DNA of 64,000 nt from Cyanophora paradoxa CCMP329 (taxonomy: Eukaryota; Plantae; Glaucophyta). Made by a program: the position numbers and the translations under genes. This document shows positions 47,656 to 64,000 of this stretch, piece after piece. The stretch is taken from NCBI GenBank assembly GCA_004431415.1, contig QPMI01000034.1, forward strand, positions 30,753 to 94,752. Direction: 5' to 3'. Position 1 is the first letter of the stretch. Every line of letters starts with the position of its first letter. The notes beneath the pieces are model-generated. The model ran no database searches and was not told where the DNA came from. It worked only from the letters and a program-made list of their open reading frames with translations.

Positions 47656-50600
47656 ATGAACCGCGACGAGCACGGCGGCTCCCGCATCCGGAACCCGGCG
47701 CGACGCACGCGTACGGCGACTCGGCTGAGATTGCGGCGACCAACCGTGCGGAGTCCTCGCAGCTACGCGGCGGAGTCGACGCAGAGCCCCCGACGCGCGT
47801 GAAGATTGCGGAGGGGCTCATCGCCACCAGCCCCGGCCAGCCCCTCAAACCTGAGGGCGTCATTACTCATATCAACGACGGCCGTGCCATTGCTGCATCG
47901 GACCCCAAGAAGTACTCGACTGAGAACGACGGCTCCCAGAAGAGCCTCGCCCTCCTTCTTGTTCTACTGCAAGCCCTGTCGGCAGGCCTCAGATCCATCG
48001 TATCGACCCTCGTGCAAGGCACCGCTGTCAAGGTCAACGCCAGGGAGGCGGCCGATGAGAGATGCCAGGAGCTCGGCAAGCGCATCCTGGCCATGAGCAA
48101 GACGGAGAGGCAGAGTTTCAATGGGCAGCGGTTGCGGGAACGCCTCAAGAAGGCCAACGCCGAACGTGAGAGCGCTGAAGCCGCACTCGATCATCCCGGC
48201 ACGATCAAGGGCCTCCCCTCCTACATGCGATTCCTCATCAGCAAGATTAGCCCCGAGGAGAGTGAGGCCTTGGACACGCGCCTCAAGTCACCTTACGACG
48301 GCAGTCCTTTACCCGACGCGCTGAAGGCCGTACACGATTTACTCCCATCCTCGACCCTCCTTCCAGACGGACAGAAGATGAAGCCCATCGACATCGTGAA
48401 GACGCTGGAGAGCCAGATCAACCGACGCGCTGGGCACAGTGGGGGATCTTACACCAACATGAACACTCAGGAGGGTCACAACCGGTACCGTAACTTCCTG
48501 AACGCCCGCGACAAGATACCTGAATTGAAGCGGATCGCCCTCGAACACGAACCCGAGGACGACGCTTCAGCAGACTTCAGGGAAATGAAGCTTGCTTCTT
48601 TCATGACCGACGCCTTCGCCGCCATACCACCTGGCCTCTTCGTCGAGGTCCGCTCGGCATCGACCGGGGAGGCTAAGTCTTCCAAGAAGATCTCTCGAGT
48701 CGAGCGGGAACAGCGACGGGAACAACGACGGGAGCAACGTGCACGACGGCAATCGCGGAGCTCAGACGACTCTGACGGCTCTGACTCCAGCTCGGGACAT
48801 TCGAAGCGCAGGAAGAGTTCAAGCCGGGCACCCCTCGGGGCGTCCGCGGTTTACGCTCATCCAAGCTCCGGACAACCGAACCCGAACTCGGCATACACGG
48901 CAGCTATACCTGCACCGGCCAACGACAAGAAGCAGACGGGGAAACCCAATTACAATTACCCGCGCGTTGAGAAAATTACTGCAATTAAACAACGGGAAGG
49001 TTACAACCGAGCAGAGAAGCCTAAACACCGCGGTACCAACCACGACTTCTACTGCTGGCGGTGCCCTGACAATTTACCGCCGGCCGAACGCCACCATTAC
49101 GCTGACGATTACCTGGAATGCCCACGGCATGACTACCGGTATAAGCTACTGGAGATGATCCAGAGCGGCGACAACAACCCAATTGTACGAATGGCGGCAG
49201 AAATCTGCAAGATTCCCACTGGCTCAAACGGACAGACGGCGCCGACGCAGCCCACGCAAATTGCAGCGGCTAACCCGACGTCGAACCTCCAATGCTTTAA
49301 CTGTCAAGGTTACGGACATCGCCAATCGGAATGCACTCAACCCAAGAAGTGCCGACTTTGTAACTCAACTGAACACCTCCAAGCAAACTGCCCCCAGAAC
49401 GGCAACCGCGACGGCGGTGGCGGCGCAGGAGGCGGTAATAAGGACACCTACCCCTGGAGTCGTGGTGACCGTGGTGGCCGCGGTGGACGAGGTGGCGGAC
49501 GAGGCGGCGGACGAGGCGGCGGTCGCGGCGGCGGTGGAGCACCTTCATCGCGCCCCCCCCTCGGCATCACTGCCAATGACAATCCTACAACGACGACGGA
49601 CGCACCAAAGACCCCGGCCACGACGCCGGCGCCTACGTGCCCGTCTGACACCACTACGCCCCTCACAACAGGTGTACCACAGACCCCGGCCACGACGCCG
49701 GCGCCCGTGGGCCCACCTGGAACTACGGCTTCATTACACACGCCGACAGTGCCAACCACTGCAACGCAGGCCCCGGCCACGATGCCGGCGCCGACGAACC
49801 CAGTGGAGACACCAGTCTTGCAAACTGTGCCGGTACACGTCGCACAGCCAGCTCCAATGGAAGAAGTGCCAGCCCCGACCACGACGTCGGCGCCAGCACC
49901 CACCTCCATGCCTACGGAACAGCAAATCGCAGAACTGGTGCAAGAAGCTAGAACGCGGGCTACCAAACCACCCTTCCAGCCCAGACCTGTTAACGTAACA
50001 CAAGCTCTATATGACTTGCAGCGAGAAGAAGTACGAGTGTCGGCAGTGACATCGACTGTCCTCGACAAGGTCAACAGAGCACTGGCTAAAATGGCCAACC
50101 TCGGAGCGCGAGCTGCCACCCCAAACCGCCCCAAGAGCAACAAGTATACAACCAAATTTGGCTTCATTCGGGAACGTATCTCTGCAATTACACAAGCCGC
50201 GGCAATCCCAGTACGGCGGATCGAAGTCGACAAGAACGCGACAAAGACCCGTTGGAATACGGACACGTGCGCTGAACACCTTCAAGGGCCTCTGGTAAAG
50301 ACGCTGCAGGACGTTACGGCGCGGGCCGCCAACCTCGATCTCGAGATCGCGGCAACGAAGGCGGCACTTACCAGCAAAGGGGGCAAGACCACAAACGTCT
50401 CGACGGCAAAGGCTCATGATGGCCAGCCACCCGTTGCCTCGACGGCGCAGAAGCCGGTAGTGGAGCACGCAACACCGGTCATCTCGCCTACGGTGAACCA
50501 GATCGTGGAGCCGGCCGAATCTACTGCTGAGTACGTAGGGCCGCTCACGACGTACCTACGAGAAGTACTGGGCTACATGCACAGACGACGCCTCGCAAAC

Positions 50601-52217
50601 CCCGTCTACTTTCGCGAAGTGCCCGGAAGTGCATGGTTCACACATGGCTTCCCTGGCTGCGACTTCCGACAGGCGTTCATCGACGCTGTCCTCTATTGCC
50701 CCCAACTGAAGCACATTACCATACTCTTCGGACACAAGGGTGCGGGACTGTGTGCGACAGCAGCGGGTGCAAGAGAGCAGGCACTGCAGAACGGCAGTAC
50801 CGACGTCGACGACGTAACGATGCTTCATCGGTACCCTATCCCTCACGAACATGTACGGCCCATCTTTCACCACGCTCTCGACTACAACGTCACCAAATTA
50901 GCTGCACCTCAACGCCAACACCGCCCGTTAGCGGAGACGGCTGGGGAGAGCGACCTTTCCACATTCCCAGACGTGATTCAGTACGAGCCTCACGGTGACT
51001 TTGGCGGCGAAACAACTTTCATTCACGAGTGTTGTGACCGGTGCACGCCGATAACAATCCAGCAGTCGGCAGCCGGAGCACTGGAGCCGCGCGAGATTCA
51101 CGGTCAGAGTCGGCAGCCTTCGAACGGACCGGCGGACCGTGCACTCCACTTGCATCTCACGACGCTTGTGGATTCACTTCGCAGCTTGGGCCAGGCCCAC
51201 CCAGCCAACGCGGTTGCGGGCCGACCTCAGTACATCACACTACTTAAACGCACGGCAGTGCAAGCATTCTGGAACGGCAACCCAGTTGCGGGAACTGACA
51301 TGGATCGACCTTGCGTACCGGACGCGCGACCCCTCAGTGGTGACCATGATCACGAACACTGGGATACGTTAGCTGAATATCCAGTCCAGCAACCCCCAGA
51401 CTTGACAGATCGACTTAATTTGACAACAGCTATCCGGGCTACAATCCTCAGGCGCACAACCTCCGCTGACCTCATACTGCTCAATGAGTGGGCGAAGCGG
51501 ACGGCCAATGCAATCAACACTGGTGCATGGCAGCAGGCCGTGAATTGGACACGGCGGGACCGACCATCCGACAACTACAACTTGGAACGGACACTTGCCC
51601 CGGCCACGGCCGGCGCAGTACCAGTTCCTACGACACGAGATATTACACCCGCCCCGGCCACGGCCGGCGCGCTCACCGTCCCTACTGCGCGAGACTCAGT
51701 ACCTGCCCCGACCACGGCCGGCGCAGTACATGTCCCGCCTCCACCACACTCGACACCCACACCAGCAATAGCTGACGGGGTAGCCCAGCCTCCTCCGACA
51801 TCACTTGAAATGCCATTGGACCGCGGTACCCAATGGACTTCAGAACAAGTATCACTGATACGAGGATGGGCCGAATCAGTACATAATCGCACACGGCGAG
51901 AAAACGTTGATCTTTGGGAACTCTACAACTGCAGCCCAACGGCGGCACTCACATGGATCGTCACCATGATGCCCCCCACGACGTACCCCACGATAGCTCA
52001 AGCAGTTCTTGACGCTTATCTGGAAACGTACCCACGGAACTCGCTCGTGCCAGAGCCGACGAACTCCTCTGTCAAATGGATGCTCGCAACTCGGAACCGG
52101 AGTCGCAACGCGAAACCTTCCATGAGCTACATGCGAAGCCAAGCTAAATGCCTGACCACGGACGCTGTCAGCATCCTGCGGCAGCGATTCCGGGCCGGAA
52201 GCAATGCGTCTTTGTGA
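47656..52217 (+). CDS. gag: Gag-containing first segment of the retroelement polyprotein
   Basis: Two CX2CX4HX4C knuckles (CFNCQGYGHRQSEC, CRLCNSTEHLQANC; 49293-49391) followed by an RGG box. The likely ATG at 47656 needs one -1 correction near 47680. Confidence 0.85.
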
Positions 52218-63500: not shown

Positions 63501-63588
63501 AAGCTGGCCCTTCTACCTCGTCCGTCGGCAACGGAATTCCCGCTCCACCTCCGCGCGACCCGCTCACCGAGCGGCTTGCACGTGGTGA
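60532..63588 (+). CDS. pol: Pol: reverse transcriptase and RNase H, Ty3/Gypsy type
   Basis: [49 protein letters not shown], YVDD (62116-62127); RNase H [26 protein letters not shown]. Confidence 0.97.
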   Translation: [1018 protein letters not shown]

Positions 63589-64000
63589 GCGAGACAAGGC
63601 GAAGACGACAACCAAGCAGCAACGCCGCGAGTCAGAGGAGCAGTACAAGCAAGCCCTCGATAACCGCCGCGAGCGGCTGTCAGACCAGGCCAAGAGTCGT
63701 CACGATGCCAACCGCCGCTCGTGCAACCGACCGGAACCGCCGACCAAGTCGACGCGACGCGAAGCGAGGAACGCCGACTGGGAAGCGTGGAAGCAGTCAG
63801 CAGACACCCTCAGCGGGCCGCAGACCTGCCCCCTCGCCTCCCAGGGAGGAGATCTCGATCCTCTCGCCACTCCATTGCGCCCCCCGCCGTTCTCGACGTC
63901 GCCGACGAAGCTGAGTACGAGGCGTACTTACAGCAGCAACGCGACTCTGGAATTCCTCAGCCTACTCCGATGAGCACCGACGCTGTCGCGCCGCTGGACA

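Follow-up and report, generated by a model that had tools for sequence, protein, structure and literature searches.

A giant Ty3/Gypsy-type retrotransposon of the glaucophyte Cyanophora paradoxa with a predicted -1 frameshift between protease and reverse transcriptase

The DNA stretch analyzed here, in the following called the window, comprises 64,000 nucleotides of the glaucophyte Cyanophora paradoxa CCMP329 (assembly GCA_004431415.1, contig QPMI01000034.1, positions 30,753 to 94,752) and carries at its 3' end a giant Ty3/Gypsy-type long terminal repeat (LTR) retrotransposon. With a probability of roughly 0.78 this is a likely young element of about 20 kb, in which a stop-free first open reading frame (ORF1) of about 4,430 codons is likely followed, after the protease, by a -1 frameshift into the frame of reverse transcriptase (RT), RNase H and a predicted integrase. 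A first-pass annotation, made from the letters alone, had proposed a giant Gypsy element encoding one polyprotein of more than 5,400 aa, with about 16 frame changes regarded as sequencing errors. All positions given here are those of the window, and the coordinates of the features are collected in Table 1.

The element itself is real, and its assignment as a giant Gypsy element was borne out by the domain order and by Ty3 being the best solved relative. Along the window the CCHC zinc knuckles of Gag (Pfam zf-CCHC, E 5e-7) are followed by a weak aspartic protease, RT (61792-62271, E 5e-34) and RNase H (62479-62877, E 4e-30), and the families found in the Pfam scan, RVT_1 and RT_RNaseH, are those of the Ty3/Gypsy type. 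The best PDB match of the RT is Ty3 (E 1e-64), the next non-Ty3 chain following at E 3e-37. The window shows Gag, protease, RT and RNase H in this order, and an integrase following the RNase H is seen in the sister models P0146, P0274 and P0131. Profile scans gave no chromodomain match in sister models with an integrase, a result that covers these models and not the window family's own integrase. An extra RNase H family (aRH), a trait of Ogre/Tat elements, was found neither in the window nor in the sister pol models. The closest RT relatives are gene models of Cyanophora paradoxa with 43-77% identity, and the window's own 819-aa model forms a 90% cluster with five models carrying four other Cyanophora paradoxa contig names. 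In a midpoint-rooted RT-RNase H tree the 35 Cyanophora rows, the window among them, all fall into a single clade (support 1.0), within which the window and two sister families are grouped (support 0.999); this tree holds 80 rows, none of them a named Gypsy-clade reference, after nine rows with short matches were dropped and every second of 89 non-Cyanophora rows was kept. A search of all representatives returned three matches, all of them from Cyanophora or the window's own, and IMG/VR yielded no confirmed locus. Within a run, the depth of the element contigs exceeds that of single-copy host contigs by a factor of 4.7 to 6.5 (100/18.5, 403/62 and 21/4.4); taken as a rough guide, this ratio fits about 5-6 near-identical copies. 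The GC content is 58-62% in the element block and 60-85% in the surrounding host DNA, and CpG depletion was seen neither in the element nor in the host.

Between 47656 and 64000 the plus strand offers a path free of stop codons if at least 13 frame changes are allowed, compared with 85 for the minus strand and at least 87 (mean 108) for 200 shuffles, and large plus-strand ORFs tile the region from 47.4 to 64 kb. An independent codon-model path uses 14-16 frame changes, most of them close to the positions given in the first-pass annotation, in agreement with its claim that about 16 changes link the separate ORFs. Contigs from four short-read runs were aligned to positions 47640-64000, and in all four runs their length departs from that of the window at 15 of the 16 frame changes, each time in a way that opens the frame. 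These differences lie at 47700, 52206, within 52222-52622, within 52623-53924, and at 53924, 54130, 54676, 57191, 57351, 57676, 58456, 60351, 60463, 63425 and 63806; a further contig gap at 63032 is in-frame. In the first-pass annotation fourteen of the changes were -1 shifts, each fixable by adding one base; the contigs show a single-base gap at 11 of these 15 sites, a two-base gap at one and larger differences at three, at which they are 55 bases longer (52206), 62 bases longer (53924) and 5 bases shorter (54130). Counting frames with the contig gap sizes, two of the gap positions being taken from the codon-model path, none of the 13 segments that follow one another up to 60463 contains a stop codon, and ORF1 in its contig form has 4,432 codons with the stop codon at 60830-60832. 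Comparison with another genomic copy gave a matching result, as the model P0135 from another contig reads through the frame changes at 57190, 57353, 57680 and 58460, shares 97-100% identity in three of four stretches (86% in the fourth, whose match crosses a frame change) and has the same C-terminus as ORF1. The family of this element thus possesses a single ORF1 of about 4,430 codons that is free of stops.

The remaining frame change, at 60527, shows no gap in any of the four runs, and all 18 gap letters of a 12.2-kb contig covering 53977-64000 lie elsewhere. Because there is no gap, because a slippery heptamer and a hairpin are present and because sister families keep the -1 frame, position 60526 is predicted to be, most likely, a programmed -1 frameshift site between protease and RT. 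A heptamer with a structure is an established type of -1 frameshift signal. The ORF1 path contains two heptamers of the form X XXY YYZ, of which only the one at 60526 leads into an extended open -1 frame (1,020 codons vs. 51); the zero frame there contains 22 stop codons before 63032. The predicted hairpin is the most stable of 5,417 windows of 36 nt in the element, and in comparison with shuffled sequences it reaches a z of -2.2, with 5 of 200 shuffles being equally stable. A heptamer, a short spacer, a stable 3' structure and an open -1 frame are all found at this site. A pseudoknot formed by the loop with 60587-60593 is a weak possibility, as a 7-bp match arises in 5% of random 50-mers and is not beyond chance.

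The sister families provide comparative evidence. Their -1 frame can encode the pol residue of the window at 36 of 45 positions in P0001 and P0121 and at 34 of 45 in P0005, compared with 5,000 shuffle controls that average 11-12 and reach at most 25, and the zero-frame identity at the same 45 positions is 20 and 16. Two sister families with 65-72% pol identity keep the same -1 overlap and the out-of-frame tail, and their gene models run past the protease into this tail and need invented introns to reach the RT. Furthermore, the pol models P0010, P0013 and P0146 begin just after the slip site, and the -1 frame of the window matches the in-frame pol of more distant families (E 8e-13). The zero-frame tail of 101 aa (60527-60832), which overlaps pol, closes with a stretch predicted to be helical and coiled-coil-like, with an echo in P0005; this tail may be a functional C-terminus of ORF1.

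Protease and RT might alternatively be joined by splicing, as in the plant element Ogre, for which an excerpted report describes a partly spliced intron lying after GAG-PROT and before RT-RH-INT (PMC6317226). In the window 121 unscored GT-AG pairs could connect the two frames, and gene predictors placed introns there; however, the predicted introns vary between the models, none of the four runs lists a joint, and an RNA-like contig of run X17 is collinear across the site. Moreover, the two frames share a stretch of about 300 nt, and conservation of the -1 frame sets in at the slip site, so that an intron would remove this conserved coding sequence, which makes splicing improbable. Even further from plausibility is the single-frame polyprotein of the first-pass annotation, in which the change at 60527 would be a sequencing error like the others. 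The position does lie within homopolymer runs, as do several true error sites, but the gap expected of an error is absent in all four runs, the zero-frame tail runs to the identical stop codon in P0135 as another copy, and this out-of-frame tail is common to two families at 65-72% pol identity. The proposed uninterrupted polyprotein ORF was therefore given up, as the shift at 60526 is real and ORF1 stops at 60830-60832, while a product of more than 5,400 aa is retained as a frameshift fusion instead of a single-frame polyprotein.

Between the knuckles of Gag and the protease lies the insert of ORF1, to which no family assigned a function. Gag upstream of it is homologous to the N-terminus of the sister model P0123 (E 1e-41), and no capsid match was obtained in the Gag region with Pfam; the protease downstream, weak in the window piece, is found with E 1e-5 to 8e-5 as Asp_protease_2 in the sister models. 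From 54680 to 60350 the insert is collinear with two sister families and P0133 at 24-46% identity, the collinear blocks being found in the models P0121/P0123, P0141/P0272/P0274 and P0133, and from 50100 to 54670, where it is partly rich in Pro, Thr, Ala and Ser, no homolog was detected in the sister families. This missing homolog, together with loose contig ends at 49.4-49.8, 53.66 and 57.1 kb, could point to a nested insertion, a possibility named in the first-pass annotation, or to a chimera of elements. Such an origin is nevertheless very improbable in view of the flat depth from 48.7 to 64 kb (mostly 98-101 in run X1), the single contigs bridging 51047-53924 and 53977-64000, the continuous frame and the collinearity of Gag, insert blocks, protease and RT in three families.

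The insert pieces scanned gave no match in Pfam, PHROGs or NCBIfam, the parts searched gave no PDB profile match, residues 1-620 and 630-1250 of P0135 gave no usable match in the ESM Atlas, and none of 7,986 candidates was a longer homolog. Two AlphaFold models calculated from six-row alignments were poor, with a mean predicted local distance difference test (pLDDT) of 36 and 32, and a fold search with the first one, which at a mean pLDDT of 36 is too poor to judge the fold, yielded no match, the best Z being 4.6 and the viral E at least 7e-3. As the insert has no strong hydrophobic segment (maximal 19-aa hydropathy 1.9) and is Cys-poor over most of its length, it does not look Env-like, and no env was found. 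It is tentatively suggested that the insert comprises accessory proteins released by the protease at Gag level, which, with a likelihood clearly below even, would act on the host, e.g., by anti-silencing, or on the particle, e.g., in its assembly around an RNA of about 20 kb. A Cys/His cluster precedes the knuckles at 48900-49200 and is common to P0123, and a 100-aa piece at 52208-52507 contains seven Cys residues; both are possible zinc-binding modules.

The start of the 5' LTR at 45955 is flanked by a single-copy contig (45508-45920, depth 21), and its 3' end has two candidates, a CA that precedes a TGG motif at 46229 and the end of a shared high-depth contig at 46256. The depth is 160 in the LTR vs. 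about 100 internally (X1). One contig of run X5 joins 45955 to more than 255 other letters ending purine-rich, similar to a polypurine tract, and this is read as the 3' LTR junction. The unit of the leader array folds into two hairpins with a z of -6.7, none of 200 shuffles being as stable, and the array is possibly a packaging signal; in Rfam no family reached the gathering score and two matches were sub-threshold. In the pol frame a dUTPase-like identity of the post-protease domain, as reported for Burro, received no Pfam match. The tether from RNase H to integrase (62880-64000) is unusually long and of low complexity, and measures about 500-600 aa in P0146, P0007 and P0131.

From the LTR start to the window end the element measures 18.0 kb, consistent with the earlier estimate of 18 kb before the integrase. 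The last 64 codons of the window match the sister pol P0146 (1,767 aa) at aa 1113-1178 (E 1e-9), the integrase zinc domain of P0146 starts at aa 1314, and DNA contigs extend about 2.2 kb past the window, offering room for the approximately 590 remaining residues. These alignments place a predicted integrase just beyond the window end and suggest that the fusion is about 6,080 aa long and that the internal region spans about 20 kb.

Table 1. Positions of the element's features in the window.
Feature	Position	Strand	Remarks
5' LTR, first part	45955..46256	+	begins TG; 3' end not fixed
Leader, 97-nt tandem array	46880..47617	+	period 97, up to 99% matches; unit = two hairpins
ORF1: Gag, giant insert, protease, 101-aa tail	47656..60832	+	about 4,430 codons in contig form; 13 frame changes in assembly
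Gag region, two CCHC zinc knuckles at end (49290-49395)	47656..49395	+	Pfam zf-CCHC E 5e-7
Insert, about 3,600 aa, function not assigned by any family	49396..60180	+	between knuckles and protease
Aspartic protease, DTG motif, ORF1 frame	60181..60525	+	Pfam Asp_protease_2 E 0.004 in window piece
Pol frame: post-protease domain, RT, RNase H, long tether	60526..64000	+	runs off window; assembly frame changes 63425, 63806
Slippery heptamer C CCU UUU (predicted -1 frameshift site)	60526..60532	+	X XXY YYZ motif
Stimulatory hairpin (predicted)	60538..60570	+	perfect 10-bp stem, 5 nt after heptamer

Several points weigh against the interpretation as an intact frameshifting element. The frameshift is a prediction, the conservation of the overlap in the sister families is at the protein level only, and the modest z of the hairpin (-2.2) fades in longer windows (z -0.4 and +0.9). 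For the insert neither a homolog nor a fold in the searches given above supports any function, and the integrase, the 3' LTR, the primer binding site and the target site duplication lie beyond the window or were not pinpointed. Moreover, the contigs collapse about 5-6 copies, lose rare variants and do not represent the window copy, from which they differ by 42 substitutions in 10 kb and by about 1.6% in Gag, and the differences of 55, 62 and 5 bases are atypical of single-base errors and could be true lesions. The collapsed contigs therefore show an intact family and not an intact window copy.

This bears on the question whether the window copy has truly decayed within an intact family, some or all of the 15 gaps being real mutations. 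Such a decay is supported by the collapse of the contigs over copies, by the real-looking, transition-rich substitutions that separate them from the window and by the three larger differences, which are unlike homopolymer errors; we consider it possible, although clearly the less likely case. Against it, no segment contains an in-frame stop codon, and 26 of the 39 Gag-region substitutions listed are synonymous (34% expected, p 2e-5; 163 further rows stand outside this list). All 11 small gaps listed are bases missing from the window, each a C or G, the pattern of missing bases extends through the non-coding LTR and leader, and 7 of the 12 gaps listed touch runs of at least three (background 16%). 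At 47700 both contigs of run X17 have the extra base, and part of their depth carries the window's alleles at 47699 and 47885, so that the extra base is present even alongside alleles of the window type. Furthermore, the models P0137, P0138 and P0139 from other contigs are broken at other places. The 15 frame changes other than 60526 are most likely errors left in a multi-copy repeat; the element family is intact, the window copy is probably, not certainly, intact, and the element is likely young. The earlier attribution of the changes to errors and not to decay is upheld for the 15 that are absent from the accurate contigs, with the three larger differences as possible lesions, and fails for 60526, which is real.

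The statement that host genes show similar breaks proved mostly wrong for 27.5-41 kb, the part of the window covered by the comparison, as most of the breaks are introns and the DNA contigs are mostly gap-free. Single-copy host DNA equals the DNA contigs with zero gaps and substitutions at 27500-29420, 32238-37258 and 37237-38586, a few gap letters occur in the host stretch 39904-40952, and an RNA-like run joins across host introns from 28478 to 28741 and from 29321 to 29496.

In the mechanism that we propose for the intact frameshifting element, most ribosomes would stop at 60830 and yield Gag-insert-protease, and a smaller share, stalled at the hairpin, would shift back on C CCU UUU and yield a fusion of about 6,000 aa. 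The protease, present in Gag-level amounts, would cut the giant precursor and might release the insert as accessory proteins, likewise in Gag-level amounts. A wider version, which we regard as speculative and rather unlikely in its entirety, sees a glaucophyte-specific giant lineage with the longest retroelement polyprotein yet (about 6,000 aa), a -1 shift from protease to RT that the list for plant Gypsy groups does not contain, and about 3,600 aa of a conserved, fold-unassigned machine, produced in Gag-level amounts, for anti-silencing or for the assembly and movement of an oversized particle.

In yeast Ty3 a +1 shift precedes the protease, and retroviruses with a pro-pol shift are known to shift between gag and pro as well, whereas Gag and protease of the Cyanophora element share one frame. 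The RT-RNase H core of Ty3 (PDB 4ol8, 7q5b) aligns over about 440 aa (E 1e-64), but its Gag-Pol has 1,547 aa. The -1 shift between protease and RT resembles the pro-pol -1 frameshift described for human T-cell leukemia virus type 1 (HTLV-1) in an excerpted source (PMC5009743). The plan as a whole is most readily compared with the planarian Gypsy elements Burro and GYPSM1, which according to excerpts of their description have a huge region between the Gag zinc knuckles and the protease and proteins of 4,873 and 5,140 aa (PMC6431247); the Gypsy type, the order of Gag, insert and protease, the 5,000-aa size class of the polyprotein and the length of the internal region (at least 20 kb) are alike. 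However, the excerpts give Burro a single ORF in which BIR, BCL2, ankyrin, MATH and Env-like domains are recognizable, along with long LTRs and thousands of copies (PMC6431247), while the Cyanophora element has the -1 shift after the protease, about 5-6 copies and a predicted fusion of about 6,000 aa. BIR, BCL2, ankyrin, MATH and Env domains gave no Pfam match in the pieces scanned, at the sensitivity of Pfam, which is below that of HHpred. The predicted fusion of about 6,000 residues would be longer than the giant-retrotransposon proteins in the excerpted part of one review.

Ogre and Retand of the plant Tat lineage are also large and, in the excerpted report, have GAG-PROT set apart from RT-RH-INT, but the separation is made by a spacer that is spliced or by a single stop codon, an extra aRH domain is present, and the size of Ogre comes mostly from its LTRs (PMC6317226). 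The Cyanophora element gave no match to the aRH in the window and the sister pol models, and it has overlapping frames in -1 in place of the spacer or stop codon between protease and RT. Overlapping frames after the protease are, in the same excerpts, the prevailing layout in none of 15 plant Ty3/gypsy groups, four being undetermined (PMC6317226). The literature searched, with most subscription papers and Repbase outside its scope, held no description of such an element for Cyanophora or of a -1 shift between protease and RT in Gypsy elements, and this giant Gypsy variant is apparently undescribed.

If the interpretation is right, the element would represent an independent origin of a mostly coding LTR retrotransposon of about 20 kb outside planarians, in an early-branching, LTR-poor algal lineage, for which excerpted sources give a genomic LTR fraction of 1.77% (PMC6704402) and a methylation and silencing of most repeats (PMC12344493). 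It would test the supposed size limits of reverse transcription and packaging, would add a compact signal as a third way, besides splicing and a stop codon, to separate Gag-protease from RT, RNase H and integrase, and would bring to light conserved but unannotated protein, amounting to thousands of residues, in a repeat-silencing host. Moreover, gene models in the Cyanophora genome cut these elements up into spurious genes with introns.

A more distant Cyanophora Gypsy family, represented by P0131 and P0149 from other contigs, is also large (models of more than 3,300 aa with integrase) and has a different insert between Gag and protease and predicted introns directly after the protease, which suggests the same frameshift across the clade. 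Regarding transcription, which is a hint only, four runs of two studies, RNA by guess, contain 0.63-0.82 of the words, and run X19 has spliced host contigs. Run X17, which is RNA-like, has one contig of 14,982 bases starting at 52623, with a depth of 24 vs. about 5 upstream, which extends 3.5 kb past the window (the DNA contigs 2.2 kb) and differs from the DNA majority; it could be one expressed copy. In the surroundings of the element, other high-depth repeats lie upstream at 40950-41900 and 43775-45076, including a 38-bp GC-rich tandem array, and the stretch 41984-42856 differs from the contigs in a paralog-like manner. An inverted repeat of 123 nt (16232-16354 and 32151-32273) has arms 98% complementary and 15.8 kb apart, and the host gene at 27765-31594, spliced in X19, encodes LysM and TLDc domains.

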